Shown here: one piece after another, positions 30,617 to 50,663 of the stretch
How the letters are laid out: the number at the start of each line of letters is the position of its first letter
Numbering within the stretch: the first letter of the stretch is position 1
From: Candidatus Latescibacterota bacterium
GTDB lineage: Bacteria; Latescibacterota; CBDEFO01
Assembly (NCBI GenBank): GCA_965248755.1
Contig: OZ252149.1
Span: 1,536,001 to 1,600,000 of the forward strand
Reading direction: 5' to 3'
Length of the DNA: 64,000 nucleotides
Made by a program: the position numbers and the translations under genes
The notes under the pieces: model-generated
What the model was told of the DNA's origin: nothing
Database searches by the model: none
The model's input: the letters and a program-made list of their open reading frames with translations, nothing else

Positions 30617-31792
30617 TTAGAAATACGTCGCGGTGCTGAACAGAATGGCTGCGCTGCTCACACGCACGTCCAGGCGGTCCCGAACCCAGTTGTACTGGTA
30701 GTCGAGCTTGAAGACTGAATCTTCTGTCGGCCGGAAATTCAGCCCCAGGGTGAGCCGCGTGTGGGTATCCCCCTTAAGTTTCGTGTCGAAGTCAACTAAT
30801 CCGTAACGGGCCACTCCTGCAAAGAACGAGCGGGGGAGAGATGGGAAGGCGCCCCGCAGGAAATCGGCGCTCCCCTGAATATACAAGCCCTGCTGCCGTT
30901 CGGAAAAGATAGTCCCCATGAGGCTCGGCGGAAGGTCTATCCAGGATTGCGCGTACTCCCCCAATACCTCGTAGCGATCGCGACGGAACTCCCCGTCGAT
31001 CGCCAGGATGGTCAGATTGCGCCCTTCGTCTATCTTCAGACCTTCCTCGCTGGTCTTGTTGTACTTTCCCGTATGCCATGAGATTCCTACTTCTCCCTCC
31101 GGAAGCGGACTGAGCGCCACACGCCCTGTGAACGCTGGACTGTTGTTGTTATCCTCTACGTTCCTTTTCCCCTGCGCAACACGTGTTCCCTCAGGACTCT
31201 CTTCGATTATGTCGGCGTTAAAACCATTTACAGCATAGAGTTCGTAGGTCAGCCGGGATCTGGCCGACGGGTAGACAGCCCCGTAGAACCCCATGCCGGG
31301 CTCCGACAGTGTCGTCGAGATTATTTGGGTACTCACTAACGGCCGATCGGTCATCTTGTTGGCTGGACTGTCGTGTGCCAGGTTAAACTTCCCGAGGGGG
31401 GTCAAGAGCATACCTCCCCGGAATGTAAACATCTCGTGAACTTCGAAGTCCAGAATAGCAAACTCTAACAAGATCTCCTCCGTCCCCTCTTCAAATTCTA
31501 ACTCGGCAGACGTACTGAAGCGCTCTGAAATGGATGCAAAGGTGAAGATATTAAACCGTTTCGGGACAAAGGTCAGCTCCTCTGTGATCCCCTCCTCTCG
31601 CTCGTAGCGGAAGTGCGCCTCGGTATAACCTCCGACTGAAGCCCTCCGCGAAGATGACTTAAACAAGTAGGGCTTGTCGTAGACGCCACCTTTGACGAAC
31701 GGACGTTCCTCGACTCCTTCCTGGGCGTACAGGGGGAGATTCCACGTTCCCATTAGCATAAACAGACCTAACCAGACAGCACGTTGACACAT
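30617..31792 (-). CDS. Outer-membrane beta-barrel (porin-like)
   Basis: Signal peptide, alternating amphipathic strands, C-terminal YF. Confidence 0.7.
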   Translation of the reverse strand: MCQRAVWLGLFMLMGTWNLPLYAQEGVEERPFVKGGVYDKPYLFKSSSRRASVGGYTEAHFRYEREEGITEELTFVPKRFNIFTFASISERFSTSAELEFEEGTEEILLEFAILDFEVHEMFTFRGGMLLTPLGKFNLAHDSPANKMTDRPLVSTQIISTTLSEPGMGFYGAVYPSARSRLTYELYAVNGFNADIIEESPEGTRVAQGKRNVEDNNNSPAFTGRVALSPLPEGEVGISWHTGKYNKTSEEGLKIDEGRNLTILAIDGEFRRDRYEVLGEYAQSWIDLPPSLMGTIFSERQQGLYIQGSADFLRGAFPSLPRSFFAGVARYGLVDFDTKLKGDTHTRLTLGLNFRPTEDSVFKLDYQYNWVRDRLDVRVSSAAILFSTATYF

Positions 31793-31804
31793 AATCGTTC
31801 CTCC

Positions 31805-32257
31805 TCATTTAGCAACAATAATATCTACAAAGCTATTATTCACCCGTGTCTCAAAGATCCGAAGCGAATTCGGCGCCGGCCCCCGCACTACCTTTCCATC
31901 CAGATCGAACGTGGAACCGTGGCACGGACACCGCAGAAAGTTTCCTGAACTTCGCACTCGACAGCCCAGGTGTGTGCAGATTGCAGAGAGAGCCCTGAAC
32001 GCGGTCCCGTCTATGTTGATCAGCAGAATGGGCCCGGCAGCACCGTCAGTGTCTACCAGAATTCCACCTCCTGACTCAGACAATTCGGGGTACACTGCTG
32101 TATCTACGACGATGCGCCCTTTCTCGACGACACCGTGGTAGACAGACATAGTCGCACATCCGGAGAGTCCATATACCGAAAGCCCCGACGCCATGACTAT
32201 CTCTCCAGATTCTATGAGAAACCTCCGCCGCGTCATACCATTTTCAGGCCGTCCCAT
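31805..32257 (-). CDS. Rieske 2Fe-2S protein with Tat/lipoprotein signal
   Basis: TRRRFL, LSGC, CTHLGC, CPCHGS. Confidence 0.9.
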   Translation of the reverse strand: MGRPENGMTRRRFLIESGEIVMASGLSVYGLSGCATMSVYHGVVEKGRIVVDTAVYPELSESGGGILVDTDGAAGPILLINIDGTAFRALSAICTHLGCRVRSSGNFLRCPCHGSTFDLDGKVVRGPAPNSLRIFETRVNNSFVDIIVAK

Positions 32258-32269
32258 ATAATCTTTCTA

Positions 32270-33523
32270 TCACAGCGACATCAGGAAAGCGATGAGGGCC
32301 TTTCGGTCGGTATCCGAAAGTGCCATAAACCCGTTTCGTGCCGCCTCGGCCTCTCCCCCGTGCAATTCGATTGCCTCGCCCAGATCCGTAGTCCATCCGT
32401 CGTGCAGATAGAACGCCGTCCCACCAAGAGGATCGCCGGCCAGCCGCAGTCCAAAGAGCGGCGGGGTGCGCCATTCATACCCATGGGCGCTCCCGTCCGG
32501 GCGGTTGTCGGCTAACTCTGGCCCCATGTCATGCAGCAGAAGGTCGGAATAGAGATGTGCCTCCACCTGGTTTAACTGAGGGATCGGGCTTGGCCCCGTT
32601 TTCAACATTGGCACGTGGCAAGATACACAATTCATCTCCATGAACAGTTTTTCACCACTACGAACCACAGCGGTGATCTCACCCCGATTGGGCGGTGTCA
32701 GTAGCCTTAGATACATCACCACATCTAACACCGCAGAGGCTGAAATCTCCGGATCGGGAGCCACGTCACCAACCACATCGCCCAATTGGGCATGGACGGT
32801 CTCCTCCGGCATAAAGTCGCTGGTTATGCCCATATCCTGAAGATGGGCCACCACATCCAGCTCAAGCAGAGAGGAGAAGTTCGCCTTGCGACCAAACCTG
32901 CCTACGGCGAGTCCCGGACCTGCTCCCACCATATACGACGGCACAAAGTCTGCGGCCTCCACCCAATTTATACGCCCTGAGATCCCATCCCCATCTGCAT
33001 CGTCAGGGTCTTCAAGCGCCAGAAGGGTCTCCTCAGGAATTCCCTCGATCAACCCCACCCCAAAGACCGGCGGTGGCATCCTGACTGATATGTCCACACC
33101 AGGCGGCAGTGTCTCCGGTGGCACTCCCGGGATGCTATGATTCTGGAGCTGATCTCCTCCTAACTCCGGGACCAGATCCGCTCCACGGCTGAAACGAGTC
33201 AGGGCTAATGAGGGCGTTCCCCGGCCATCCCCGGGATGACAGCTTTCACAGCTCGGCTGGTTGAAAATAGGCCCCAACCCCTCCGCGACGGTAAAGACAC
33301 GCGCGAACTGCTCATCACCCCTGGCGAACATAGCGTTTAACTCTGGCGAAAGCCCCTCGAACGCACCGTCCAGGCTCTCTCCTGCTGGCACTGAATCTGT
33401 CAGCAGTGTGTCGCAGCCGACTACGGATAGTAGCCACGTCAGCGCCGCCGCGGACATCAGCACGCGACGGACAAATGAAGGTCTTCTCTCTGCCGGAACT
33501 TTCCAACATTCTTGCATTCTCAT
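32270..33523 (-). CDS. Di-heme oxidoreductase family lipoprotein (DHOR-like)
   Basis: GLGPIFNQPSCESCH, CVSCH, YSDLLLHDMG, WRTPPLFG, YLHDG. Confidence 0.88.
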   Translation of the reverse strand: MRMQECWKVPAERRPSFVRRVLMSAAALTWLLSVVGCDTLLTDSVPAGESLDGAFEGLSPELNAMFARGDEQFARVFTVAEGLGPIFNQPSCESCHPGDGRGTPSLALTRFSRGADLVPELGGDQLQNHSIPGVPPETLPPGVDISVRMPPPVFGVGLIEGIPEETLLALEDPDDADGDGISGRINWVEAADFVPSYMVGAGPGLAVGRFGRKANFSSLLELDVVAHLQDMGITSDFMPEETVHAQLGDVVGDVAPDPEISASAVLDVVMYLRLLTPPNRGEITAVVRSGEKLFMEMNCVSCHVPMLKTGPSPIPQLNQVEAHLYSDLLLHDMGPELADNRPDGSAHGYEWRTPPLFGLRLAGDPLGGTAFYLHDGWTTDLGEAIELHGGEAEAARNGFMALSDTDRKALIAFLMSL

Positions 33524-33564: not shown

Positions 33565-34113
33565 TTATCTCAATTGCAAGCTCATCTCAACACCTGTTCC
33601 TATTGGAACTAAAACGCTTTGGTATCTATCCCGCACATATTCAAGATAATCATGCATCCTGTCTTTGAACATTTCAGCATTGTCGGCAACTATTAGAGCG
33701 TCTTTTGTGAGTTTTGATTCCATCAGCTTAAAGTAGCTAATGTAGTCGCTTTTAACTGCATCAAGGAAGAGGAAATCAAACTTTTCCATTAGTTTAGGTA
33801 TCTCTTCTAACGCATCACCCTGAATCAGTTTTATGTTGCTTAATCCAACTTTTTTGAAGTTGTCTGCTGCCATTTTCGCCTTCGATTCGGAGATTTCGAT
33901 AGTTGTTACCTTCCCGCCATAAGATTTGGCCGCTTCTGCCAGCAATAAAGTCGAATAACCGTTGGAGGTTCCTACTTCCAGAATGTTATTTGGTCTTAAC
34001 GCCGAAACCAGTATGAAAAAGAACTTACCGGTCTCTGGGGGGATGTTGAAATAACCCTCATTGTTTCTTCCAAATATTTCCAATTCTTCAATTAAATGCT
34101 CTGTTGCTTTCAT
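33565..34113 (-). CDS. Class I SAM O-methyltransferase; current ATG supplied by the IS terminus
   Basis: ILEVGTSNGYS, FDFLFLDAVK, IVADN. The original ATG GAT AAA G is stranded at 46582-46573. Confidence 0.85.
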   Translation of the reverse strand: MKATEHLIEELEIFGRNNEGYFNIPPETGKFFFILVSALRPNNILEVGTSNGYSTLLLAEAAKSYGGKVTTIEISESKAKMAADNFKKVGLSNIKLIQGDALEEIPKLMEKFDFLFLDAVKSDYISYFKLMESKLTKDALIVADNAEMFKDRMHDYLEYVRDRYQSVLVPIGTGVEMSLQLR

Positions 34114-35376
34114 ACCGCTCCCCTTGACAGAGCGACAAATATTTCGCAAATTGGGGTTTGAGAAGGGAGGTCAAGGTGTCGAGCCCCGAAGTGAAAGATG
34201 GTAAGCGCTGGACGGCGACCCGTAAGGGAGAGATTGTGTTGGCTCTTTTGAGAGGAGCAGATCTATCTGAGGTGTGTCGTAAGAATGGAATTAGCCAGTC
34301 GCAGGCGTATGCTTGGCGTGATAGTTTCTTAGAAGGGGGCCAGGAGAGTCTGAAGTCTCGGCGTGGTCGCAAGGATCCGAAGGAGCGAGAGGTTAGCCGG
34401 TTGGAGCGCAAGGTAGGGCAGTTGACGCTCCAGTTGGAGATACTCGAAGAGGTAGCCCGTCTAAAAAAAACGAAGCGGTTGCCTTGAGTGGGCGGTTTTT
34501 GGGTCGAGGCTATTCCCGCAAGGTGGTAGCTTTGGCTTTGGGTTTGCATCGTTCGACTCTGTATAGGTTTAGGGATAGAGGTGTCAGTTCTTCTGTTAAA
34601 GAGCCTGTGATAGATGAGGAGCTTGCTTTTCGTATTCGAGGGATACTGGACCAAGAAGAGGCATTTGGTCACAGGCGGGTTTGGGCGCATCTTCGTTTCA
34701 AGGAAGGGGAATGTGTCAACGTTAAGAAGGTTCATAGGATAATGAAGCTTAAGGGGTGGCAGTGTAAGCTGTGGAATCGTCCCGGGAGAAAGGGGCCACA
34801 GGTTGCCCAGAAGCGTTCTGTGGTGGATAGTCCCGACAGTTTGTGGTCGAGTGACTTGACAAAGATTTACTGTGGAAAAGATGGTTGGTGTCCTCTTATT
34901 GCGGTGGTGGACAACGGAAGCCGGGAGGTTCCTGGGTATCGTTTTAGTCGAAAAGGGAGGGCACTGGAGGCCACAGATGCCCTGGATCGGGCCGTGATCT
35001 CTCGATACACTTCCAAGGAGGCTGTCCCCCAGGGTCTCACTTTGCGCTCTGACAATGGTTCCATCTTTTTGGCTCGGGCCTATTTGGCCAGTACCGAATA
35101 TTGGGGAATTCGTCAGGAATACATACCAAGTGGTAAACCCGATTGGAACGGTGTTGTAGAGCGTTTTTTCAGGACCCTCAAGCAAGAGTGTGTTTGGCTT
35201 CACAAGTTTGAATCCTTTGAACAGGCTGAGAAGATCATATCTCAGTGGATCGATAATTACAACAAGAACAGGCTTCATTCATCCCTGGGATATAAGACCC
35301 CAAAAGAGTGGAGAAAACAATTTTATCTACTACCCCAGGTTGCTTAATTGGTGTCGCTTTCCTGGGAAGCAGTACA
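34111..35376 (+). mobile_element. IS3-family element, copy 2
   Basis: Same ends and ORF translations as copy 1. Confidence 0.97.
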
Positions 35377-36026
35377 ATATTTCTTGGGCAGAAAGAATTC
35401 TTTTACCGCCCGGTGAGCACTTCGATAAAGAACAAAAGGTAGTAATAAAATGTTTTGAAACCAAAGATATTCTTGCCTGCCCGGGTAGTGGTAAAACAAA
35501 GGCTTTGATTGCCAAGTTGTTGATTTTGTCCCGGCAAATGCCTCTTGAAAATAATAGGGGTATTTGCGTATTAACTCACACAAATGTGGCTATAAATGAA
35601 ATAAAAAGCCACGCTTACTTTGCTTCTAAAAAGCTCTCTAATTACCCAAATCATTTTGGGACAATTCAAAGTTTCGTGGATAAATATCTTGCGATACCGA
35701 CGTATATCAATCAGTTCAACCGAAGACCATTATTCATAAACAACGAAATTTATCTTGATAGGATGGAAAGAACGAGAAAATATTTAGGTAGAAAAACAAA
35801 TGCATTTTGCTATCAGAGCGGTCATAAAGATTTGCCTTATTCACTTAGATTTGAAGATTTTTCCCTGGATGATAATGGTATATGTAAAAGACTTAAATTA
35901 GATTCAAATGATACAACTCAAAGAGCACACTATGATAGATTGCTAAGACTAAAAGAACGGATACTTTTGGATGGAATACTAAGCTATGATGATGCATATT
36001 ATATAGCAGAAAGACACATTGAAAAG
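35377..36026 (+). pseudogene. UvrD/GajB-like helicase, N-terminal fragment
   Basis: ACPGSGKT Walker A, VLTHTN, GTIQSF; truncated at both ends by element termini. Confidence 0.85.
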
Positions 36027-36446
36027 TGTACTGCCCCCCTGGAAAGCGACACCGATTAAGCAACTTGGGGTAGCAGATATTATTGTTTTCTCCATTCTTG
36101 CAGGGTCTTGTATCCCAGGGATGAATGAAGACGGTTCTTGTCGTAATTATCGATCCACTGAGATATGATCTTCTCAGCTTGCTCAAAGGATTCGAAGCTG
36201 TGAAGTCAAACACACTCTTGCTTGAGGGTCCTGAAAAAACGCTCTACAACACCGTTCCAATCGGCCTTTCCGCTCGGAACATATTCTTGACAAACCCCTA
36301 ATATTCGGTACTTACCAAATAGGATCTAGAAAGAAAGATCGAACCGTTGTCCAGCGCTAGCCGTCTTCTGCTCTGGCGCTGACATCTTGCCCTTCGCGAA
36401 CCCTGATTTACAGAATATCTGTCGTTCTGTGAAGGGGAACGGTATG
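36027..36446 (-). mobile_element. 420 bp MITE-like IS3 deletion derivative, copy 1
   Basis: Ends CATACCGTTCCCC and GGGGCAGTACA; retains the 3' end of a diverged orfB. Confidence 0.9.
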
Positions 36447-36508
36447 ATATGGCAACCACCCATCTTCGATTATCGCACCTATCTTCGATTATAAATAGCC
36501 TTCTTGTT

Positions 36509-37873
36509 TCAGTTATTACTACCTGCTAACAATTCCTTATTAACATCCCAACCACTTCTCTGCAGTGCTTCTTCTTGTCCGGTAATACTATCCTTATGAA
36601 CCGCAATGCAAAGGAGACGAGATGGACGTGACATCCCTACAAAAGCCATTTTTAGATTTTGAATTACTCTTTCTTTTGGCTTAGTATGCTCTCCCTTTAT
36701 ATAATTTATTATTCGCTTAATGTCATAGTCATAAAAGAAAGTTTCAAGGTAACATGTTGCCGTATGGGTTTCGCCTTTGACACCATGAATAGTTGAAACT
36801 TCTATGTCGATATCAGTTGTTCCAGAAGAATATTTGTAGATGTTATTGCTCGAATGGGTTTCTTCATCATCCGCTTCCAAATCTGATGAATTTATAAAGA
36901 TTGTAAGTTCAACATTCACCTGATAATTAAAAAACTCCTTAAATTCATTGGTTAGATAATGTTTTATTTCTTCAAAAACTTCTTCTTGCCTGTGTATCTT
37001 CAAACACCAATTGGCGAGCCTTACCCTAAAATCCTGGTAAAAATCCGAGTTTTTTTCTGATATATATTTATGCAGTTTTTTCTCTGTGAATGCCCTTCCA
37101 TCGTCAGTTACTCCTGCAATTCTTAAGCACTTTAAGAAAGCTTCCCCTAACCTCTTCTTGTAAAAATTAACTCCATTAGATGAAATAAAACTATCAGATT
37201 GTGGAGCTAAATAACTTTTTAGATTACTAAATTCAGTTTTTTTAACTTTTATTTCTTTGGAGTAGCCGTCCCAATAACTTGGTATAGTTCTTTTTGTGTC
37301 ATGCGGTTTTCCACGCCATCCAACTGCTTTAAATACCCTTTTCTCATTCTGATGTAGATTATTTCTGATAATTATTTCACCGAATTTATCTAATACCTGC
37401 TGAATAGTATAATCATCATAAACAATGATAACAGGAGTAATTTCATTTTGCCTGCCATTTCCCGTTATTGTCTGCCGGAAAACACAAAGTTTTTCAACCT
37501 TGCTTGCTATAGCGTTAGAAAATCTTTTACTACCTGTAATACACATAGTTCTGTCGTCAATTACTGCCCAACCGCATTCCAAGTTAGGGTCATAGTCAAA
37601 TATTGATTGATTTAAATCACCTATTTTTTGAATAACAACATTATCATTGAATATTTTATTCATCAGTTCGGACTGTATTGTACTTGAATCCTGCATTTCA
37701 TCTATGAAAACATAGGCAAATCTTTTTGCAAATACGTTTTTCAAATTAGGGTGCTTTTCAATGTGTCTTTCTGCTATATAATATGCATCATCATAGCTTA
37801 GTATTCCATCCAAAAGTATCCGTTCTTTTAGTCTTAGCAATCTATCATAGTGTGCTCTTTGAGTTGTATCATT
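36509..37873 (-). pseudogene. UvrD-like helicase, C-terminal ~450 aa, inverted
   Basis: FIDEMQD, IGDLNQSI, STIHGVKGET, FVGMSRP motifs; fused to a MITE-derived ATG at 37942. Confidence 0.85.
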
Positions 37874-38293
37874 TGTACTGCCCCCCTGGAAAGCGACACC
37901 GATTAAGCAACTTGGGGTAGCAGATATTATTGTTTTCTCCATTCTTGCAGGGTCTTGTATCCCAGGGATGAATGAAGACGGTTCTTGTCGTAATTATCGA
38001 TCCACTGAGATATGATCTTCTCAGCTTGCTCAAAGGATTCGAAGCTGTGAAGTCAAACACACTCTTGCTTGAGGGTCCTGAAAAAACGCTCTACAACACC
38101 GTTCCAATCGGCCTTTCCGCTCGGAACATATTCTTGACAAACCCCTAATATTCGGTACTTACCAAATAGGATCTAGAAAGAAAGATCGAACCGTTGTCCA
38201 GCGCTAGCCGTCTTCTGCTCTGGCGCTGACATCTTGCCCTTCGCGAACCCCGATTTACAGAATATCTGTCGTTCTGTGAAGGGGAACGGTATG
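37874..38293 (-). mobile_element. MITE copy 2
   Basis: As MITE copy 1, with one SNP. Confidence 0.9.
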
Positions 38294-38355
38294 ATATGGC
38301 AACCACCCATCTTCGATTATCGCACCTATCTTCGATTATAAATAGCCTTCTTGTT

Positions 38356-38738
38356 TCAGTTATTACTACCTGCTAACAATTCCTTATTAACATCCCAACC
38401 ACTTCTCTGCAGTGCTTCTTCTTGTCCGGTAATACTATCCTTATGAACCGCAATGCAAAGGAGACGAGATGGACGTGACATCCCTACAAAAGCCATTTTT
38501 AGATTTTGAATTACTCTTTCTTTTGGCTTAGTATGCTCTCCCTTTATATAATTTATTATTCGCTTAATGTCATAGTCATAAAAGAAAGTTTCAAGGTAAC
38601 ATGTTGCCGTATGGGTTTCGCCTTTGACACCATGAATAGTTGAAACTTCTATGTCGATATCAGTTGTTCCAGAAGAATATTTGTAGATGTTATTGCTCGA
38701 ATGGGTTTCTTCATCATCCGCTTCCAAATCTGATGAAT
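38356..38738 (-). pseudogene. Helicase 3' fragment, inverted
   Basis: Matches the 3' end of the helicase. Confidence 0.85.
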
Positions 38739-40004
38739 TGTACTGCTTCCCAGGAAAGCGACACCAATTAAGCAACCTGGGGTAGTAGATAAAATTGTTT
38801 TCTCCACTCTTTTGGGGTCTTATATCCCAGGGATGAATGAAGCCTGTTCTTGTTGTAATTATCGATCCACTGAGATATGATCTTCTCAGCCTGTTCAAAG
38901 GATTCAAACTTGTGAAGCCAAACACACTCTTGCTTGAGGGTCCTGAAAAAACGCTCTACAACACCGTTCCAATCGGGTTTACCACTTGGTATGTATTCCT
39001 GACGAATTCCCCAATATTCGGTACTGGCCAAATAGGCCCGAGCCAAAAAGATGGAACCATTGTCAGAGCGCAAAGTGAGACCCTGGGGGACAGCCTCCTT
39101 GGAAGTGTATCGAGAGATCACGGCCCGATCCAGGGCATCTGTGGCCTCCAGTGCCCTCCCTTTTCGACTAAAACGATACCCAGGAACCTCCCGGCTTCCG
39201 TTGTCCACCACCGCAATAAGAGGACACCAACCATCTTTTCCACAGTAAATCTTTGTCAAGTCACTCGACCACAAACTGTCGGGACTATCCACCACAGAAC
39301 GCTTCTGGGCAACCTGTGGCCCCTTTCTCCCGGGACGATTCCACAGCTTACACTGCCACCCCTTAAGCTTCATTATCCTATGAACCTTCTTAACGTTGAC
39401 ACATTCCCCTTCCTTGAAACGAAGATGCGCCCAAACCCGCCTGTGACCAAATGCCTCTTCTTGGTCCAGTATCCCTCGAATACGAAAAGCAAGCTCCTCA
39501 TCTATCACAGGCTCTTTAACAGAAGAACTGACACCTCTATCCCTAAACCTATACAGAGTCGAACGATGCAAACCCAAAGCCAAAGCTACCACCTTGCGGG
39601 AATAGCCTCGACCCAAAAACCGCCCACTCAAGGCAACCGCTTCGTTTTTTTTAGACGGGCTACCTCTTCGAGTATCTCCAACTGGAGCGTCAACTGCCCT
39701 ACCTTGCGCTCCAACCGGCTAACCTCTCGCTCCTTCGGATCCTTGCGACCACGCCGAGACTTCAGACTCTCCTGGCCCCCTTCTAAGAAACTATCACGCC
39801 AAGCATACGCCTGCGACTGGCTAATTCCATTCTTACGACACACCTCAGATAGATCTGCTCCTCTCAAAAGAGCCAACACAATCTCTCCCTTACGGGTCGC
39901 CGTCCAGCGCTTACCATCTTTCACTTCGGGGCTCGACACCTTGACCTCCCTTCTCAAACCCCAATTTGCGAAATATTTGTCGCTCTGTCAAGGGGAGCGG
40001 TATG
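38739..40004 (-). mobile_element. IS3-family element, copy 3 (no target duplication)
   Basis: Same element; the flanks are different helicase positions in opposite orientations. Confidence 0.95.
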
Positions 40005-40245
40005 CCTTGAAACTTTCTTTTATGACTATGACATTAAGCGAATAATAAATTATATAAAGGGAGAGCATACTAAGCCAAAAGAAAGAGTAATTCAAAATCT
40101 AAAAATGGCTTTTGTAGGGATGTCACGTCCATCTCGTCTCCTTTGCATTGCGGTTCATAAGGATAGTATTACCGGACAAGAAGAAGCACTGCAGAGAAGT
40201 GGTTGGGATGTTAATAAGGAATTGTTAGCAGGTAGTAATAACTGA
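40005..40245 (+). pseudogene. Helicase 3' fragment
   Basis: LETFFYDY...AGSNN stop. Confidence 0.85.
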
Positions 40246-40307
40246 AACAAGAAGGCTATTTATAATCGAAGATAGGTGCGATAATCGAAGATGGGTGGTT
40301 GCCATAT

Positions 40308-40727
40308 CATACCGTTCCCCTTCACAGAACGACAGATATTCTGTAAATCGGGGTTCGCGAAGGGCAAGATGTCAGCGCCAGAGCAGAAGACGGCTAGCGC
40401 TGGACAACGGTTCGATCTTTCTTTCTAGATCCTATTTGGTAAGTACCGAATATTAGGGGTTTGTCAAGAATATGTTCCGAGCGGAAAGGCCGATTGGAAC
40501 GGTGTTGTAGAGCGTTTTTTCAGGACCCTCAAGCAAGAGTGTGTTTGACTTCACAGCTTCGAATCCTTTGAGCAAGCTGAGAAGATCATATCTCAGTGGA
40601 TCGATAATTACGACAAGAACCGTCTTCATTCATCCCTGGGATACAAGACCCTGCAAGAATGGAGAAAACAATAATATCTGCTACCCCAAGTTGCTTAATC
40701 GGTGTCGCTTTCCAGGGGGGCAGTACA
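40308..40727 (+). mobile_element. MITE copy 3
   Basis: Same 420 bp element. Confidence 0.9.
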
Positions 40728-43332
40728 AGATTGCTAAGACTAAAAGAACGGATACTTTTGGATGGAATACTAAGCTATGATGATGCATATTATATAGCAG
40801 AAAGACACATTGAAAAGCACCCTAATTTGAAAAACGTATTTGCAAAAAGATTTGCCTATGTTTTCATAGATGAAATGCAGGATTCAAGTACAATACAGTC
40901 CGAACTGATGAATAAAATATTCAATGATAATGTTGTTATTCAAAAAATAGGTGATTTAAATCAATCAATATTTGACTATGACCCTAACTTGGAATGCGGT
41001 TGGGCAGTAATTGACGACAGAACTATGTGTATTACAGGTAGTAAAAGATTTTCTAACGCTATAGCAAGCAAGGTTGAAAAACTTTGTGTTTTCCGGCAGA
41101 CAATAACGGGAAATGGCAGGCAAAATGAAATTACTCCTGTTATCATTGTTTATGATGATTATACTATTCAGCAGGTATTAGATAAATTCGGTGAAATAAT
41201 TATCAGAAATAATCTACATCAGAATGAGAAAAGGGTATTTAAAGCAGTTGGATGGCGTGGAAAACCGCATGACACAAAAAGAACTATACCAAGTTATTGG
41301 TGTACTGCTTCCCAGGAAAGCGACACCAATTAAGCAACCTGGGGTAGTAGATAAAATTGTTTTCTCCACTCTTTTGGGGTCTTATATCCCAGGGATGAAT
41401 GAAGCCTGTTCTTGTTGTAATTATCGATCCACTGAGATATGATCTTCTCAGCCTGTTCAAAGGATTCAAACTTGTGAAGCCAAACACACTCTTGCTTGAG
41501 GGTCCTGAAAAAACGCTCTACAACACCGTTCCAATCGGGTTTACCACTTGGTATGTATTCCTGACGAATTCCCCAATATTCGGTACTGGCCAAATAGGCC
41601 CGAGCCAAAAAGATGGAACCATTGTCAGAGCGCAAAGTGAGACCCTGGGGGACAGCCTCCTTGGAAGTGTATCGAGAGATCACGGCCCGATCCAGGGCAT
41701 CTGTGGCCTCCAGTGCCCTCCCTTTTCGACTAAAACGATACCCAGGAACCTCCCGGCTTCCGTTGTCCACCACCGCAATAAGAGGACACCAACCATCTTT
41801 TCCACAGTAAATCTTTGTCAAGTCACTCGACCACAAACTGTCGGGACTATCCACCACAGAACGCTTCTGGGCAACCTGTGGCCCCTTTCTCCCGGGACGA
41901 TTCCACAGCTTACACTGCCACCCCTTAAGCTTCATTATCCTATGAACCTTCTTAACGTTGACACATTCCCCTTCCTTGAAACGAAGATGCGCCCAAACCC
42001 GCCTGTGACCAAATGCCTCTTCTTGGTCCAGTATCCCTCGAATACGAAAAGCAAGCTCCTCATCTATCACAGGCTCTTTAACAGAAGAACTGACACCTCT
42101 ATCCCTAAACCTATACAGAGTCGAACGATGCAAACCCAAAGCCAAAGCTACCACCTTGCGGGAATAGCCTCGACCCAAAAACCGCCCACTCAAGGCAACC
42201 GCTTCGTTTTTTTTAGACGGGCTACCTCTTCGAGTATCTCCAACTGGAGCGTCAACTGCCCTACCTTGCGCTCCAACCGGCTAACCTCTCGCTCCTTCGG
42301 ATCCTTGCGACCACGCCGAGACTTCAGACTCTCCTGGCCCCCTTCTAAGAAACTATCACGCCAAGCATACGCCTGCGACTGGCTAATTCCATTCTTACGA
42401 CACACCTCAGATAGATCTGCTCCTCTCAAAAGAGCCAACACAATCTCTCCCTTACGGGTCGCCGTCCAGCGCTTACCATCTTTCACTTCGGGGCTCGACA
42501 CCTTGACCTCCCTTCTCAAACCCCAATTTGCGAAATATTTGTCGCTCTGTCAAGGGGAGCGGTATGTTGGGACGGCTACTCCAAAGAAATAAAAGTTAAA
42601 AAAACTGAATTTAGTAATCTAAAAAGTTATTTAGCTCCACAATCTGATAGTTTTATTTCATCTAATGGAGTTAATTTTTACAAGAAGAGGTTAGGGGAAG
42701 CTTTCTTAAAGTGCTTAAGAATTGCAGGAGTAACTGACGATGGAAGGGCATTCACAGAGAAAAAACTGCATAAATATATATCAGAAAAAAACTCGGATTT
42801 TTACCAGGATTTTAGGGTAAGGCTCGCCAATTGGTGTTTGAAGATACACAGGCAAGAAGAAGTTTTTGAAGAAATAAAACATTATCTAACCAATGAATTT
42901 AAGGAGTTTTTTAATTATCAGGTGAATGTTGAACTTACAATCTTTATAAATTCATCAGATTTGGAAGCGGATGATGAAGAAACCCATTCGAGCAATAACA
43001 TCTACAAATATTCTTCTGGAACAACTGATATCGACATAGAAGTTTCAACTATTCATGGTGTCAAAGGCGAAACCCATACGGCAACATGTTACCTTGAAAC
43101 TTTCTTTTATGACTATGACATTAAGCGAATAATAAATTATATAAAGGGAGAGCATACTAAGCCAAAAGAAAGAGTAATTCAAAATCTAAAAATGGCTTTT
43201 GTAGGGATGTCACGTCCATCTCGTCTCCTTTGCATTGCGGTTCATAAGGATAGTATTACCGGACAAGAAGAAGCACTGCAGAGAAGTGGTTGGGATGTTA
43301 ATAAGGAATTGTTAGCAGGTAGTAATAACTGA
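40728..43332 (+). pseudogene. Helicase fragment interrupted by IS copy 4
   Basis: RLLRLKE..PSYW | IS | WDGYSKE..AGSNN. Confidence 0.85.
41301..42566 (-). mobile_element. IS3-family element, copy 4 (TTGG target duplication)
   Basis: TTGG on both sides. Confidence 0.97.
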
Positions 43333-43394
43333 AACAAGAAGGCTATTTATAATCGAAGATAGGTGCGATAATCGAAGATGGGTGGTTGCCATAT

Positions 43395-43814
43395 CATACC
43401 GTTCCCCTTCACAGAACGACAGATATTCTGTAAATCGGGGTTCGCGAAGGGCAAGATGTCAGCGCCAGAGCAGAAGACGGCTAGCGCTGGACAACGGTTC
43501 GATCTTTCTTTCTAGATCCTATTTGGTAAGTACCGAATATTAGGGGTTTGTCAAGAATATGTTCCGAGCGGAAAGGCCGATTGGAACGGTGTTGTAGAGC
43601 GTTTTTTCAGGACCCTCAAGCAAGAGTGTGTTTGACTTCACAGCTTCGAATCCTTTGAGCAAGCTGAGAAGATCATATCTCAGTGGATCGATAATTACGA
43701 CAAGAACCGTCTTCATTCATCCCTGGGATACAAGACCCTGCAAGAATGGAGAAAACAATAATATCTGCTACCCCAAGTTGCTTAATCGGTGTCGCTTTCC
43801 AGGGGGGCAGTACA
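43395..43814 (+). mobile_element. MITE copy 4
   Basis: Same 420 bp element. Confidence 0.9.
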
Positions 43815-44058
43815 CGCTATAGCAAGCAAGGTTGAAAAACTTTGTGTTTTCCGGCAGACAATAACGGGAAATGGCAGGCAAAATGAAATTACTCCTGTTA
43901 TCATTGTTTATGATGATTATACTATTCAGCAGGTATTAGATAAATTCGGTGAAATAATTATCAGAAATAATCTACATCAGAATGAGAAAAGGGTATTTAA
44001 AGCAGTTGGATGGCGTGGAAAACCGCATGACACAAAAAGAACTATACCAAGTTATTGG

Positions 44059-45324
44059 TGTACTGCTTCCCAGGAAAGCGACACCAATTAAGCAACCTGG
44101 GGTAGTAGATAAAATTGTTTTCTCCACTCTTTTGGGGTCTTATATCCCAGGGATGAATGAAGCCTGTTCTTGTTGTAATTATCGATCCACTGAGATATGA
44201 TCTTCTCAGCCTGTTCAAAGGATTCAAACTTGTGAAGCCAAACACACTCTTGCTTGAGGGTCCTGAAAAAACGCTCTACAACACCGTTCCAATCGGGTTT
44301 ACCACTTGGTATGTATTCCTGACGAATTCCCCAATATTCGGTACTGGCCAAATAGGCCCGAGCCAAAAAGATGGAACCATTGTCAGAGCGCAAAGTGAGA
44401 CCCTGGGGGACAGCCTCCTTGGAAGTGTATCGAGAGATCACGGCCCGATCCAGGGCATCTGTGGCCTCCAGTGCCCTCCCTTTTCGACTAAAACGATACC
44501 CAGGAACCTCCCGGCTTCCGTTGTCCACCACCGCAATAAGAGGACACCAACCATCTTTTCCACAGTAAATCTTTGTCAAGTCACTCGACCACAAACTGTC
44601 GGGACTATCCACCACAGAACGCTTCTGGGCAACCTGTGGCCCCTTTCTCCCGGGACGATTCCACAGCTTACACTGCCACCCCTTAAGCTTCATTATCCTA
44701 TGAACCTTCTTAACGTTGACACATTCCCCTTCCTTGAAACGAAGATGCGCCCAAACCCGCCTGTGACCAAATGCCTCTTCTTGGTCCAGTATCCCTCGAA
44801 TACGAAAAGCAAGCTCCTCATCTATCACAGGCTCTTTAACAGAAGAACTGACACCTCTATCCCTAAACCTATACAGAGTCGAACGATGCAAACCCAAAGC
44901 CAAAGCTACCACCTTGCGGGAATAGCCTCGACCCAAAAACCGCCCACTCAAGGCAACCGCTTCGTTTTTTTTAGACGGGCTACCTCTTCGAGTATCTCCA
45001 ACTGGAGCGTCAACTGCCCTACCTTGCGCTCCAACCGGCTAACCTCTCGCTCCTTCGGATCCTTGCGACCACGCCGAGACTTCAGACTCTCCTGGCCCCC
45101 TTCTAAGAAACTATCACGCCAAGCATACGCCTGCGACTGGCTAATTCCATTCTTACGACACACCTCAGATAGATCTGCTCCTCTCAAAAGAGCCAACACA
45201 ATCTCTCCCTTACGGGTCGCCGTCCAGCGCTTACCATCTTTCACTTCGGGGCTCGACACCTTGACCTCCCTTCTCAAACCCCAATTTGCGAAATATTTGT
45301 CGCTCTGTCAAGGGGAGCGGTATG
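44059..45324 (-). mobile_element. IS3-family element, copy 5 (duplicated with its TTGG flanks)
   Basis: Same insertion site as copy 4. Confidence 0.97.
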
Positions 45325-46152
45325 TTGGGACGGCTACTCCAAAGAAATAAAAGTTAAAAAAACTGAATTTAGTAATCTAAAAAGTTATTTAGCTCCACAA
45401 TCTGATAGTTTTATTTCATCTAATGGAGTTAATTTTTACAAGAAGAGGTTAGGGGAAGCTTTCTTAAAGTGCTTAAGAATTGCAGGAGTAACTGACGATG
45501 GAAGGGCATTCACAGAGAAAAAACTGCATAAATATATATCAGAAAAAAACTCGGATTTTTACCAGGATTTTAGGGTAAGGCTCGCCAATTGGTGTTTGAA
45601 GATACACAGGCAAGAAGAAGTTTTTGAAGAAATAAAACATTATCTAACCAATGAATTTAAGGAGTTTTTTAATTATCAGGTGAATGTTGAACTTACAATC
45701 TTTATAAATTCATCAGATTTGGAAGCGGATGATGAAGAAACCCATTCGAGCAATAACATCTACAAATATTCTTCTGGAACAACTGATATCGACATAGAAG
45801 TTTCAACTATTCATGGTGTCAAAGGCGAAACCCATACGGCAACATGTTACCTTGAAACTTTCTTTTATGACTATGACATTAAGCGAATAATAAATTATAT
45901 AAAGGGAGAGCATACTAAGCCAAAAGAAAGAGTAATTCAAAATCTAAAAATGGCTTTTGTAGGGATGTCACGTCCATCTCGTCTCCTTTGCATTGCGGTT
46001 CATAAGGATAGTATTACCGGACAAGAAGAAGCACTGCAGAGAAGTGGTTGGGATGTTAATAAGGAATTGTTAGCAGGTAGTAATAACTGAAACAAGAAGG
46101 CTATTTATAATCGAAGATAGGTGCGATAATCGAAGATGGGTGGTTGCCATAT

Positions 46153-46572
46153 CATACCGTTCCCCTTCACAGAACGACAGATATTCTGTAAATCAGGGTT
46201 CGCGAAGGGCAAGATGTCAGCGCCAGAGCAGAAGACGGCTAGCGCTGGACAACGGTTCGATCTTTCTTTCTAGATCCTATTTGGTAAGTACCGAATATTA
46301 GGGGTTTGTCAAGAATATGTTCCGAGCGGAAAGGCCGATTGGAACGGTGTTGTAGAGCGTTTTTTCAGGACCCTCAAGCAAGAGTGTGTTTGACTTCACA
46401 GCTTCGAATCCTTTGAGCAAGCTGAGAAGATCATATCTCAGTGGATCGATAATTACGACAAGAACCGTCTTCATTCATCCCTGGGATACAAGACCCTGCA
46501 AGAATGGAGAAAACAATAATATCTGCTACCCCAAGTTGCTTAATCGGTGTCGCTTTCCAGGGGGGCAGTACA
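46153..46572 (+). mobile_element. MITE copy 5, right boundary of the composite
   Basis: Followed directly by CTTT. Confidence 0.9.
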
Positions 46573-46692
46573 CTTTATCCATTTTGAATCTTATAGGTTT
46601 CGGGTTTCATAAACACTTTCAGGACGCACCTGTCCCCGACTACATCACTGATAAGAGATCTGAATATATGTTTGGGTATATGTAGGGAGGCA

Positions 46693-47019: not shown

Positions 47020-47415
47020 TTATCGGGATGTGACAATGGTATCCGGGTTTCCGACCACGAATTTACCTTCCATTATTGGGTGCAGATAACAGGAATAGGT
47101 CAGAATCGTATCTTGCGGCGGCACTGAGAAGATGATGTCCTCACGCTCCCCGGGTCGAAGAATCTCCGTCTCCACATCGAGACCCTCTATTGCGAGATTG
47201 TGTTCAACGCCACGCGATTCATTGCGGAAGATCAATTTTACTTTCGAGCCGGGCTTCGCGTAAAGCGTCGGATTATTTCCACTGAAAACAAAGTTTTCCG
47301 CTACGACCTCGAGGATGGCATTCGGCCTATCCCGCATCCCCGCGACACCGACGAGTGTGATACCTATCAAAAGCAGAGCAAAAACGATTACCTGTGAAGT
47401 TCTTTGCCGAAACAT
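47020..47415 (-). CDS. Cupredoxin-domain protein
   Basis: Signal peptide, EHNL, YSCYLHPIMEG. Confidence 0.85.
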   Translation of the reverse strand: MFRQRTSQVIVFALLLIGITLVGVAGMRDRPNAILEVVAENFVFSGNNPTLYAKPGSKVKLIFRNESRGVEHNLAIEGLDVETEILRPGEREDIIFSVPPQDTILTYSCYLHPIMEGKFVVGNPDTIVTSR

Positions 47416-47457
47416 CTCCTTTCCCTCCTTATTAGCGGTATCAAATCAAAAAAGGAT

Positions 47458-48705
47458 TCAGAACGTGACCAGAAGCCCTGTCGCGTACATAATCAAGAAG
47501 CCCACGAGCAAGCCGACGAAGTTGTGGGGCGTCAGCACATCCGCGTCTTCGGATTGGCGTGCCATCTGACGGAGGATGACGTAAGAGACCTGCACAATCG
47601 CCCCTGCTCCGATGCCAAGAAACAGCACAGACCAGACTGCCGAATAGGTAAAGCCGCCGATCCACGCGCCCAGAATCGTCGGCACACCCGCAAGAGCTCC
47701 CATCCAGATGAAGTTGGCAAAGGCGACCCGCTGTTTCGCAACCGGAGCCACGATGGCTAACCCCTCGGTCGTATTATGAACAGCAAATCCGACCACCAAT
47801 AGTCCTCCAAGTGAGATGTTGCCAAGCGCGTATGCCGAACCGATGGCAAGCCCCTCTCCTAAATTGTGTAAGCCGATCCCAAAGGCGATCATGTAGGCGA
47901 GTACCATCCGCTGGAATGTCTCACCGCGTTGCAACGCCTGAGTGCGCGACCATCGAGCAATAACCATCAGAAGCAGCAAGCAGCCTGAAAATCCGACCAC
48001 GACCAGCGCAACACCCTCGTAAGCCTCCGGCAATTCATCAGCGACTTCAAGGGCTTCGTGGAGCGCGTCCACTGCGAGAAAGACCAGCAATCCCACGGTC
48101 AAGCTCAGAAGGAAATTCAACCCCCGGGTGCTCACATTTCGCATGGCCGGAAACCAGAGCAGCCCCAAGAAAACGGGGATCACACCCACATAGACCCCTA
48201 AAAGGGAAAAGATGCCGAGATACCTCCAATTGGGACTTGGAGATTCCACGGCCACTTCAATCTCCTTGCTAAACGTCAGTCCTGTTGAGGTGAGGAGGGT
48301 GACTTCGTGTGTGTCGCCCTCCACCCAGGGATAAAACAGATGAATCTGCGCGCTCTCCAGGTGGTTAAGTGTTGCCTTTGGCCTGATCTCAAAGGGCCAA
48401 TAGGCTTCATCCACCATCACCTGCGCGACGGTCGTCTCACTGGGGCCATCGTTGAGGATGTGCAAAATGATCTCTTTATGGCGTTCTTGCGCCACGTCTT
48501 GGTCCCGGAGCACAATGCGCTGAAACGCGATCTTCTCCACGGGTGGGAAATGGGTACGCAAGGCTTTGCCAGGACCATGGACCTGCAGAATGACGATCAA
48601 AATACCCAGCAGGACAAGCGGCAAAAAGATGAAAACCCAGTGCGATAGACTTTTTTTTCCGTGATGTGATGTATCTTCGGATTCGGGATGAGGATCCGCG
48701 TTCAT
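47458..48705 (-). CDS. ZIP-family metal transporter with N-terminal soluble domain
   Basis: GIGLHNLGEGLAIG and HNTTEG. Confidence 0.9.
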   Translation of the reverse strand: MNADPHPESEDTSHHGKKSLSHWVFIFLPLVLLGILIVILQVHGPGKALRTHFPPVEKIAFQRIVLRDQDVAQERHKEIILHILNDGPSETTVAQVMVDEAYWPFEIRPKATLNHLESAQIHLFYPWVEGDTHEVTLLTSTGLTFSKEIEVAVESPSPNWRYLGIFSLLGVYVGVIPVFLGLLWFPAMRNVSTRGLNFLLSLTVGLLVFLAVDALHEALEVADELPEAYEGVALVVVGFSGCLLLLMVIARWSRTQALQRGETFQRMVLAYMIAFGIGLHNLGEGLAIGSAYALGNISLGGLLVVGFAVHNTTEGLAIVAPVAKQRVAFANFIWMGALAGVPTILGAWIGGFTYSAVWSVLFLGIGAGAIVQVSYVILRQMARQSEDADVLTPHNFVGLLVGFLIMYATGLLVTF

Positions 48706-48727
48706 TGCTTCTGACTCCTTGTACGTA

Positions 48728-49942
48728 TTATACTGCGCTTACTGCCTGAATGATACCCATCCAGCCCAGCTCGGCGAACTCGGACTGATGCGCATGGATC
48801 ATGTATTGCCCCGGATACCGGAGCGTGACTTCCAGAATCGCCCGTTCCCCCTGACACATCATAACCGTATCGGTGAACTCATCCGTGTGCAAACGCGTCC
48901 CCGTCCGATATACATCGAAAAACGCCGCGTGGAGATGGAACGAGTTAACCGGGTCAAATTCGGTGACATTAACCAGATACACGCGCACCAGCTCGCCAAC
49001 TTTGACCTGAATCGGATGATTCATGTAGTAAAAGGCAACGGTATTGGCCGCATAGACTTCGTTGTCGCCATCGAAGTTCGTATCGAAGCCGTTCATCGTT
49101 ATGATCAACTCTTGAGCGGGAGGTCTCGGTTCCCGTGGATCCACGATATAAACGCCGTACAAGCCTTTATGGATATGGCGTTTTAGCGGCAGCGAGTGGC
49201 AATGGTAGAGGTGGATTCCAACAGGATCGGCGTCAAATTCGATAAGAAATTCACCCCCCGGAGGGACAAACTGATCCGGAAAAGCCCCGTCCATCTCGGG
49301 GCGATGCCAGCCGTGAAAGTGAATGGTGTGCGGATGGGAACCCTGATTGCGGAAGAGAATGCGGATGTTGTCCCCTTCGGTGGCGCGAATGGTGGGACCC
49401 GGAACCTGCCCGTTATACGTCCACGCAGGAAAGAAGACACCGGGCGCAATTTCAATCTCTTTGTCCACTGCGATAAACTCATATTCCCTCAGGAGCGTCC
49501 CGTCGGGTCGAGGCGTTTCACGGTAGTAGTTCTGGCGTTCTTCAGAGGGCAAATCATTAAAGTTCCAGGCGGTCAAGTAGCGTGTCGGGTCGAAGTCACC
49601 CGCTTGAATCTCTCCGACGGTGCCCATACGATGGGCATGCAATTCCGCTTTTGGTTGTATTGCCCCCCGCTCCTCTGCTTGTGCAACAAGGCCGATGGAG
49701 GAAGGAATTCCACGGCCGAAGGCACGCCGCCCGCCGACCCACAATGCCCCAAGAAGGGCGGCTCCGCCTGCCAGCAGAAAACCTCGGCGCGAAGAACCGT
49801 GCGGTGATTCGGAGTGCGTTATTGCGGTCATCCAGCGAAGGAGCTGCCGAAGCCAGAAAAAACCGCGTCCAGGCCAGAATAGAAGTAGTCCAACCGCACC
49901 TAAAGCGATAATAACCAGTAAAACGTTGATTGGATTCATCAT
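48728..49942 (-). CDS. Two-domain multicopper oxidase with Tat-like motif
   Basis: SRRGFL; HTIHFHG, YHCH, HLH, HAHQ copper ligands. Confidence 0.88.
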   Translation of the reverse strand: MMNPINVLLVIIALGAVGLLLFWPGRGFFWLRQLLRWMTAITHSESPHGSSRRGFLLAGGAALLGALWVGGRRAFGRGIPSSIGLVAQAEERGAIQPKAELHAHRMGTVGEIQAGDFDPTRYLTAWNFNDLPSEERQNYYRETPRPDGTLLREYEFIAVDKEIEIAPGVFFPAWTYNGQVPGPTIRATEGDNIRILFRNQGSHPHTIHFHGWHRPEMDGAFPDQFVPPGGEFLIEFDADPVGIHLYHCHSLPLKRHIHKGLYGVYIVDPREPRPPAQELIITMNGFDTNFDGDNEVYAANTVAFYYMNHPIQVKVGELVRVYLVNVTEFDPVNSFHLHAAFFDVYRTGTRLHTDEFTDTVMMCQGERAILEVTLRYPGQYMIHAHQSEFAELGWMGIIQAVSAV

Positions 49943-50006
49943 AAAAACCTCATACGTGGGTAGACGTTACTCATGGCACATCCTCTTGCCTCTTGGCTGT
50001 CCAGTG

Positions 50007-50663
50007 TTAAGATGCTGCACCCACCAATATCTTATCTGCTAATTCCCTCCCTAACGTATGTCTGTCCGAACCGATCTGGATGAGGATAGGGCCGTTGAAA
50101 GGGAGCTTTTCGGTAACCGCGACGATGACTCCGGGGAAGATACCGAGGCTGGCCAGGTAACGAAGGATGTCAGGGTCCTGGTCGTTGATGCGCGAAATGG
50201 TGACGGTCTGCCCGGCATCTGAGTCTGAAAGACTCCCGTGATCTACTTCTTCGAGGAGACCCTCTTTTGTGGGTATGGGATCCCCGTGCGGGTCTGTCGT
50301 CGGGTGCCCTAAGGCTTCGTCAATCTTATCCTCAAATTCTTCGGAGATGACGTGTTCTAACTCCTCAGCCTCAGCATCCACCTGATCCCATGTGTAGCCC
50401 AAAGCTTCAGACAGATAGAGTTCCAAGAGCCTATGGTGCCGAATGACCTCTACAGCTATCTTCTCACCTGAGGGCGTAAGTTTAACCTCCCGATAGGGTG
50501 TATGGACGACTAATTTCATATCGGTCAGTTTGCCCAGCATACTGGTAACCGAAGCAGCAGATACGTTGGCATTTTCCGCAACGGCAGAGGTAGTTACCTT
50601 CCCAGCGTCCTTCTGCAATTTGTATATGATCTTCAGGTAGTCCTCAACAGATTGGCTCAGCAT
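50007..50663 (-). CDS. DtxR/MntR-family metal-dependent repressor with FeoA-like domain
   Basis: EDYLKIIY, RHHRLLE, EAEELEH, DPHGDPIP. Confidence 0.93.
   Translation of the reverse strand: MLSQSVEDYLKIIYKLQKDAGKVTTSAVAENANVSAASVTSMLGKLTDMKLVVHTPYREVKLTPSGEKIAVEVIRHHRLLELYLSEALGYTWDQVDAEAEELEHVISEEFEDKIDEALGHPTTDPHGDPIPTKEGLLEEVDHGSLSDSDAGQTVTISRINDQDPDILRYLASLGIFPGVIVAVTEKLPFNGPILIQIGSDRHTLGRELADKILVGAAS

Follow-up and report, generated by a model that had tools for sequence, protein, structure and literature searches.

A composite transposon ended by an IS3 relic and nested in its own gajB cargo in a Candidatus Latescibacterota chromosome

In the chromosome of Candidatus Latescibacterota bacterium (GCA_965248755.1, contig OZ252149.1) an O-methyltransferase gene is cut after its third codon by 12,462 bp of repeated insertion sequence (IS) and cargo DNA, which raises the question of how such a block was put together and how it moved. 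An initial annotation had read it as a hybrid composite transposon that carried a helicase gene between a full IS3 element and a miniature inverted-repeat transposable element (MITE) of a diverged isoform. We examined the window, i.e., the whole stretch of 64,000 nt at contig positions 1,536,001-1,600,000 (forward strand), together with the rest of the genome. The block works like a composite transposon, in a variant whose right end is an IS remnant; its cargo is a beheaded copy of the Gabija gene gajB, and its interior is a mosaic of nested copies. Five-digit positions are window coordinates, and six- or seven-digit loci marked "genome" are whole-contig coordinates. Hn denotes position n of the cargo reference sequence (H, 1,957 bp), M the 420-bp IS3-derived relic at the right boundary, and IRL and IRR the left and right inverted repeats. 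Gene identities were obtained by Pfam, NCBIfam and PADLOC profile searches. The locus was compared with a same-genus genome (G001, 96% complete) and with the contigs, not the raw reads, of four public sequencing runs (X1, X5, X7, and X9).

The outer coordinates of the block proved correct: a full IS occupies 34111-35376 at the left and M ends at 46572 on the right. CTTT stands on both outer sides (34107-34110 and 46573-46576), and neither boundary element has a direct repeat of its own, the IS lying between CTTT and ATAT and M between ATAT and CTTT. A random pair of 4-mers would match with p ~0.004; the frequency of CTTT in the window is 0.007. The target gene and the duplication are as follows.

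33565..34110, minus strand: body of the O-methyltransferase gene, the target, cut after codon 3 (Pfam PF01596, E 2.5e-21; contiguous with MDK in G001)
34107..34110, plus strand: left target duplication CTTT (from the sequence)
46573..46582, minus strand: right CTTT and displaced methyltransferase start, ATG GAT AAA (from the sequence and G001)

In the initial annotation, joining the flanks rebuilt ATG GAT AAA GCA ACA GAG (MDKATE). In G001 the site reads ATG GAT AAA GCA ACA GAA (MDKATEHLIKE) uninterrupted, with no other sequence between the start and the body of the gene, and synteny at ~95% identity extends on both sides of the CTTT site; the G001 gene itself is broken by a different insertion elsewhere. 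The same empty-site join (34106 to 46573, with four shared letters) was present in contigs of two of the four runs, at a depth of 3 in X5 and 16.5 in X9. The X1 and X9 contigs cover the flanks and barely the cargo. An open frame from 34149 (minus strand) inside the left end of the IS is predicted to continue in frame into the methyltransferase.

The IS is a member of the IS3 family by its OrfB, which scored 208 bits against NCBIfam transpos_IS3 (NF033516, cut-off 160 bits) and carries rve domains. Its orfA and orfB overlap in -1 phase, and an A8C run at 34463-34471 (IS position 353) is presumed to be the -1 frameshift site. The inverted repeats are imperfect and ~27 bp long. The genome holds 45 identical full-length copies, and direct repeats flank 49 of the 69 full-length family copies (48 of 4 bp and one of 5 bp). 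Two further copies in the window, at 11822-13087 (AGGC) and 53541-54806 (GGCT), are ordinary insertions with their own repeats. Among 168 genomes of the phylum, OrfB matches at E <= 1e-30 occurred in two, the source genome and G001, and the closest IS relatives among 185,579 genomes were in a record labelled Ca. Latescibacterota.

The right boundary element, M, is an IS3 relic with an internal deletion; stop codons interrupt what remains of its orfB, and both of its ends are IR-like. It is 86% identical to the IS over its last 326 bp and ~75% over its first 98 bp. M is short, non-coding and has two terminal repeats, as the MITE label would require, but its 30-bp left flank is identical in 14 of 14 copies and none of them has its own repeat. 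These two observations rule out an independently mobile MITE: M is a one-ended relic that was copied passively and never moved alone. The description as a diverged isoform was overstated; the right end of M does differ from that of the IS, but at only 3 of 27 positions. This right end is functional, as three hybrid IS copies that carry the last 100 bp of M (genome 462037, 1615229, and 3041514) each have their own 4-bp repeat; they probably arose by recombination that deleted cargo.

In a further isoform, of 1,288 bp, a 20-bp palindrome and two single-base insertions disrupt orfB; it is present in 15 near-identical copies (e.g., genome 3661968-3663255), which therefore moved in trans. The same palindrome was found in 8 of 10 G001 loci, and a one-strand scan gave 412 palindrome-like matches (window examples at 24412, 24889, and 28571). 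The proposal that one transposase accepts ends from more than one isoform was borne out by IS...M units with their own repeats, by the three hybrids and by the 15 trans-moved copies; the end tolerance of the transposase is modest. The left end of M, which is not used, has 3 changes in 27 positions, compared with one in the spreading isoform. A cis preference of the transposase alone (PMC5009743) is weakened as the cause of M's immobility by the spread of the isoform in trans, and the immobility is better explained by the decayed left end.

Next, we traced the cargo. It is gajB without its first nine codons, as identified with the PADLOC GajB profile. At the founder locus (genome 1278600-1283055) an intact gajA (1278600-1280462; PADLOC GajA, E 8e-217) is followed directly by gajB, the gene order of a Gabija system, and gajB is interrupted at about codon 10 by an IS at genome 1280495 with its own ATAT repeat (MRIIITNDD, then the IS, then ISWAE). 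The resulting junction of IS and H1 is present at nine places in the genome, and no uninterrupted cargo copy exists in it. In G001 no cargo was detected at the DNA level, where only M and IS ends matched. The helicase cargo had been described as mobilized as a unit; it is a gene that lacks its first nine codons, of which no whole copy remains, in a block that is a mosaic. We concluded that the Gabija system was destroyed rather than mobilized. The founder locus is a defense cluster (genome 1275355-1280462), in which a type IIG restriction-methylase gene precedes the intact, partnerless gajA. In the block, a predicted open frame at 35190-36059 (plus strand) opens at a GTG that lies 62 codons inside the IS and continues into gajB without a change of frame.

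Other units of IS, cargo and M, which the initial annotation had suggested searching for, show a genome-wide family; cargo or M is present in ten clusters. Six host insertions have matched 4-bp repeats.

Window 34111-46572: intact unit, repeat CTTT
Genome 3655516-3660450: intact unit of 4.9 kb, repeat AAAC
Genome 786134-787878: intact mini unit of 1,745 bp, repeat ATCC, from a later IS insertion 59 bp before M
Genome 1645310 and 2719407: split pair TGTT, flanks exchanged
Genome 2708202 and 2434658: split pair ATAG, flanks exchanged
Genome 2440139 and 1636184: split pair CTAA, flanks exchanged

A mini unit was also found inside cargo, with repeat CTTA. G001 is contiguous across the ATCC, TGTT and ATAG sites and, more loosely, across AAAC; the CTAA pair has no G001 match, but a reading frame of 253 + 163 codons crosses it. 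In the G001 empty-site search three of nine flanks had no match, and a tandem repeat array holds one flank. Since flanks have been exchanged between loci, the chromosome was rearranged by recombination at copies of the unit. The block is not a classical composite with the same complete IS at both ends, its right boundary being the 420-bp relic. The part of the original claim that stands is movement through the left end of the IS and the right end of M, as seen in the outer ends and the CTTT repeats; the part that does not is 12.46 kb moving as one designed unit.

The 12,462 bases of the block consist of 5,064 bases of IS (four identical copies), 2,100 of M (five copies) and 5,298 of cargo (eight fragments). 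The eight fragments overlap, lie in both orientations and all derive from one 1,957-bp piece of gajB. The order of the parts is given below.

First half, from the left:
34111..35376, plus strand: IS copy 1, 1,266 bp; its left end, with tip 5'-CATAC, bounds the block on the left (by comparison of IS copies)
34158..34487, plus strand: orfA in IS copy 1, 109 aa, with helix-turn-helix (HTH) domain (open reading frame and Pfam)
34484..35347, plus strand: orfB in IS copy 1, 287 aa, DDE/rve, in -1 phase to orfA (NCBIfam transpos_IS3, 208 bits; Pfam rve)
35377..36026, plus strand: cargo H1-650, the 5' part of gajB without codons 1-9 (PADLOC GajB, E 3e-72, match from profile position 11)
36027..36446, minus strand: M copy 1, right end joined to H650 (by alignment)
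36447..37873, minus strand: cargo H531-1957, inverted (PADLOC GajB, E 4e-129)
37874..38293, minus strand: M copy 2; its junction with H531 is the partner, with a 3-bp repeat, of the junction of H533 and the IS left end at genome 1643511
38294..38738, minus strand: cargo H1513-1957, inverted (by alignment)
38739..40004, minus strand: IS copy 2, recombinant (by flank comparison)
Second half:
40005..40307, plus strand: cargo H1655-1957 (by alignment)
40308..40727, plus strand: M copy 3; its junction with H561 is common to genome 1641381, and an X5 contig breaks there
40728..41300, plus strand: cargo H561-1133 (by alignment)
41301..42566, minus strand: IS copy 3, inserted at H1130-1133 between 4-bp repeats of its own; genome 2710601-2718159 has the same allele
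42567..43394, plus strand: cargo H1130-1957 (by alignment)
43395..43814, plus strand: M copy 4; its junction with H890 opens a 2,758-bp tandem repeat
43815..44058, plus strand: cargo H890-1133 (by alignment)
44059..45324, minus strand: IS copy 4, tandem copy of copy 3
45325..46152, plus strand: cargo H1130-1957, in which the gajB stop codon ends at H1895 (by alignment)
46153..46572, plus strand: M copy 5, whose right end bounds the block on the right (by alignment and X7 contig)

IS copy 2 has two unlike flanks: the left one, H1655, is the partner of the junction of H1658 and the IS right end at genome 2435923, and the right one, H1513, also occurs at genome 1642246. The two copies of the 2,758-bp tandem repeat differ by one base. 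The block tiles into ten exact matches to several other loci, as expected from recombination among copies, and two junctions found only at this locus are exact repeat-partners of junctions at distant loci. No second copy of the 12.46-kb form and no donor copy exist in the genome. The cargo starts and ends with ATAT (35377-35380 and 46149-46152), identical to the founder IS repeat and to the left flank of M, probably by chance in AT-rich DNA.

The sequencing runs gave the following support. In X5 the contig depth was 48-66 for cargo and 6-8 for single-copy flanks (~6-10x), compared with 9-12 copies per cargo position in the assembly. The termini of X5 contigs fall at H590, H561, H1159, and H1928, where junctions H561, H1130, and H1899 would be expected to place them. 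In X7 one contig extends from a point 30 bases within M into the right flank and shows no mismatch.

The cargo has a GC content of 34%, compared with 49% for the genome, ranks among the genome's most AT-rich DNA, and totals ~20.6 kb at 9-12 copies per position. It contains 14 distinct IS3-family insertion points (0.68 per kb) and two more insertions by an unrelated IS with a 465-aa ORF; the H1899 point and the other IS near H1910 lie past the stop at H1895. In host DNA (58 sites) the insertion density per kb was 0.002 at >50% GC, 0.008 at 45-50%, 0.076 at 40-45%, 0.065 at 36-40%, and 0.37 at <36%. The cargo lies on this AT gradient, in line with a unit that carries its own best target, and its roughly tenfold copying has therefore multiplied the most attractive target in the genome several-fold. 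At nine of the 14 points both junctions survive and overlap by 3-4 bp, and two of these points (H531/533 and H1381/1384) are insertions of sub-composites.

From these results we propose a history that we consider likely as a whole. A Gabija operon, gajA-gajB, would have lain upstream of the old, internally deleted relic M. Insertion of an active IS3 element about ten codons into gajB (genome 1280495, repeat ATAT) put its IRL ~3.2 kb upstream of the working IRR of M. IS3 elements transpose by copy-out/paste-in, which leaves the donor copy in place. On this route the transposase may sometimes have paired the IRL of the IS with the IRR of M instead of its own IRR, and the IS, the beheaded gajB and M (~3.64 kb) would have been circularized together and inserted with a 4-bp repeat. 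One such insertion split the O-methyltransferase gene at CTTT. AT-preferring IS copies, the broken isoform and sub-composites would then have landed repeatedly inside copies of the cargo, and homologous recombination between the repeats would have collapsed and shuffled the nests into the 12.46-kb mosaic and swapped flanks between distant loci. The sequences themselves show the ends, the repeats, the empty sites, where the cargo came from, the constant left flank of M, the use of its right end, the AT gradient and the swapped flanks; the circles, the succession of events, growth of the block in place after its last jump and a recipient-only role of the 5'-CA tip are inferred.

Several points weigh against this history. 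A circle junction, from the right end of the IS or M to the left end of the IS, had been suggested as a check, and the assembly contains no IRR-spacer-IRL junction; two raw matches were a chance match and an H1-28 stub. A joint in X5 from 40009 to 36017 might resemble an end-to-end junction, but it fits the 81-bp gap between two ordinary copies (genome 3661886-3661968) and was not counted. Five of the 14 cargo points keep one junction only (four right-end and one left-end), and their missing partners are assumed to have been lost by homologous recombination between the direct repeats of self-insertion. The AT control is thin, with only two sites in 5.5 kb of host DNA in the <36% GC class. Four outer flanks have no clean partner, and those at genome 865321, 4068616, and 465746 have none. 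The flank pair at genome 4058696 and 464002 is contiguous in G001 but its junction is irregular, and a rearrangement of unclear chemistry has joined sites ~3.6 Mb apart in assembly coordinates. No contig spans the block, the internal order and the 2,758-bp tandem repeat being given by the assembly alone, and the source sample is possibly what was sequenced in X5 and X7. Irregular junctions at genome 4064155 and 464002 both involve cargo position 1902 and the tip of the IS left end.

Four other explanations were weighed. The first, which we regard as unlikely, is one-ended attack, in which right ends (the only ones with a canonical CA-3') would be cut and transferred into nearby cargo on the same or the sister chromosome, and replication would yield tandem or inverted duplications. 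It would accommodate the 4:1 ratio of right-end to left-end orphan junctions, the junction of M and H890 that opens an exact 2,758-bp tandem repeat, and the role of the IS2 right end as sole donor (PMC3299598). The 4:1 ratio is not significant, however, and the nine points with both junctions and 3-4 bp overlap, including H531/533 and H1381/1384, bear the mark of two-ended insertion. Somewhat less probable still is assembly of the whole 12.46-kb block elsewhere and its movement in one step, as the initial annotation had it. Against the intact outer ends and CTTT repeats, the intact repeats of the 1.7- and 4.9-kb units and the evidence that sub-units moved as composites stand the ten shared pieces and the failure to find a second copy or a donor, which copy-out would have left in place unless it was lost.

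We give little credence to selection, rather than targeting, as the cause of nesting. A whole gajB copy might be harmful (e.g., through the frame from 35190 with intact gajA) and be kept only once broken; that no uninterrupted cargo copy remains, that gajA is intact and that an in-frame IS-gajB ORF is present would agree with this. Several copies, however, carry more than one hit, two of the 16 insertions lie past the gajB stop, the AT gradient alone predicts a high rate, and the fused frame is a predicted ORF only. Misjoined repeats in part of the nest, the least probable explanation, are suggested by a very repetitive region with no spanning record and by one X7 contig that runs through the whole cargo unbroken, but the members of junction pairs at different loci complement each other, three junctions coincide with breaks in X5 contigs, the depth agrees with the copy number, one base distinguishes the two tandem copies, and the unbroken contig may be explained by contig builders dropping low-depth branches. 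The history of relic-end capture, nesting and recombination remains the preferred one.

The left end of the IS departs from its family in one respect. The consensus tips of the IS3 family are 5'-TG...CA-3'. Here the left tip, fixed by the target repeats, is 5'-CATAC, and the cut strand would end in TG-3' and not in CA-3'. This does not expel the element from the IS3 family, a member of which, IS2, likewise departs at its left tip (PMC3299598). The same left tip was found in 10 of 10 G001 loci. Among 14 metagenome relatives the left tip was located in 12, as CAT in nine (OrfB identity 73-95%) and TAT in three (44-59%), and full 4-bp repeats confirmed the boundary in three relatives. Right tips are also variable, since three metagenome relatives have CG. 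At ~40% identity, four of five relatives have TG at both ends, and the fifth was not resolved. Judged from these sequences, the 5'-CA left tip is conserved in a clade. The right end would be the sole donor and the 5'-CA left end a recipient only, by analogy, because the TA-3' left tip of IS2 acts only as recipient (PMC3299598). A promoter across the circle junction scored weakly for this IS, with 3/6 at -10 and 3/6 (4/6 with the end of M) at -35, and well in only three of 11 relatives scored (TTGACT-17-TATTCT/TATCGT). One IS copy (genome 2434658-2435923) has a TG left tip with only two changes and is thus a natural variant with a canonical tip, which did not multiply; it seems to have arisen by deletion from the left end of an inner IS to the right end of M, with the outer ATAG flank of M retained.

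A broader idea is tentative, and we doubt it more than we believe it. An IS3 clade may have dropped the CA-3' left tip (for 5'-CA or 5'-TA), possibly because the tip serves as the -10 box of the circle-junction promoter, and its left end would then be a pure recipient that pairs with any downstream right end of the family, dead relics included. Capture of AT-rich cargo, the preferred target of the element, would set off a runaway loop in which every jump supplies more target, with the nests as a self-made sink for about one fifth of insertions (14 cargo versus 58 host sites) and as rearrangement hubs.

The surroundings of the block (30617-33523 and 47020-50663, minus strand) hold metal- and redox-related genes, which encode a di-heme oxidoreductase, a Rieske protein, a cupredoxin-like protein, a ZIP transporter, a multicopper oxidase and an iron-dependent repressor. 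Elsewhere in the genome the unrelated IS with the 465-aa ORF (~60 copies) starts a 6,288-bp block that is duplicated exactly (genome 1268640-1274927 and 2711395-2717682), and the first 2,884 bp of this block are present at two more sites, which suggests that the element mobilized neighboring genes one-endedly.

The locus belongs to a composite transposon whose natural history within a single chromosome can be followed almost completely, from birth by relic-end capture through spread, miniaturization, self-nesting and flank exchange; most comparable histories come from plasmids of clinical origin or from systems engineered in the laboratory. IS relics, though dead, still provide usable ends, and annotation that ignores them misses mobile units. 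A defense gene can be destroyed and then multiplied ~tenfold as junk. The IS3 transposase here must cut after TG-3' at the left end, a testable case that is relevant to how donor and recipient ends are distinguished in copy-out/paste-in. Most deserving of further work are the history of the family, the loop in which the cargo serves as target, and the non-canonical left end. A literature search, with most subscription papers, ISfinder and supplements outside its coverage, returned no IS3 composite that has a relic at one end and is nested in the cargo it carries, and no published description of the 5'-CA left tip. Each part of the combination has a precedent (Tn6330 remnants, IS2 asymmetry, IS1 self-insertion), and the absence of the natural combination from the literature is weak evidence of novelty.

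Capture guided by H-NS is reportedly tied to AT richness. In that system horizontally acquired DNA is a hot spot of transposition (PMC11335895), whereas here the hot spot was multiplied by the transposon itself. A Gabija system consists of GajA and GajB; our locus resembles it in the gajB cargo and in gajA directly upstream at the founder, and differs in a gajB that is start-less and interrupted. The joining of ends from distant copies, with insertions, deletions and inversions as its products, is common to our block, to the IS30 rearrangement network, which works through IR-IR junctions and insertion next to IRs (PMC9333248), and to the IS2-like composite megacircle of Burkholderia thailandensis (PMC6350997). 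Unlike in the IS30 network, no cargo insertion abuts an IR, the nearest lying 24-28 bp from the right end of the IS and 56-59 bp from the left end of M. IS2 of Escherichia coli, in which the left tip TA-3' is only a recipient and the right end the sole donor (PMC3299598), shares with our IS an orfA/orfB arrangement with -1 frameshift and a non-canonical left tip. The left 3' end here is TG (5'-CA), with both tip bases off consensus, the repeat is 4 bp, and the donor and recipient roles are assigned by analogy only. With an engineered IS1 in laboratory E. coli, nested self-insertion, recombination and transposition of sub-sequences make variants (PMC12065110). As in our block, self-insertion unites homologies, recombination and sub-unit transposition follow, and composite duplications occur at several loci; self-insertion occurred at chance there, whereas here it is natural and hits the cargo at a rate far above the genome average. 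In single-ended derivatives of Tn6330 (ISApl1-mcr-1), 42-90 bp of the downstream IS remain, its IRR included (PMC5821093). Like the block, these derivatives combine a complete IS on the left with the remnant of a right end on the right, lie between target repeats that enclose the entire unit, are supported by empty sites and come from a family that moves by copy-out/paste-in. They belong to the IS30 family and their remnant arose by deletion from the same IS, whereas here an IS3 element used an older, pre-existing relic, and the unit carries dead cargo in which it has nested itself.

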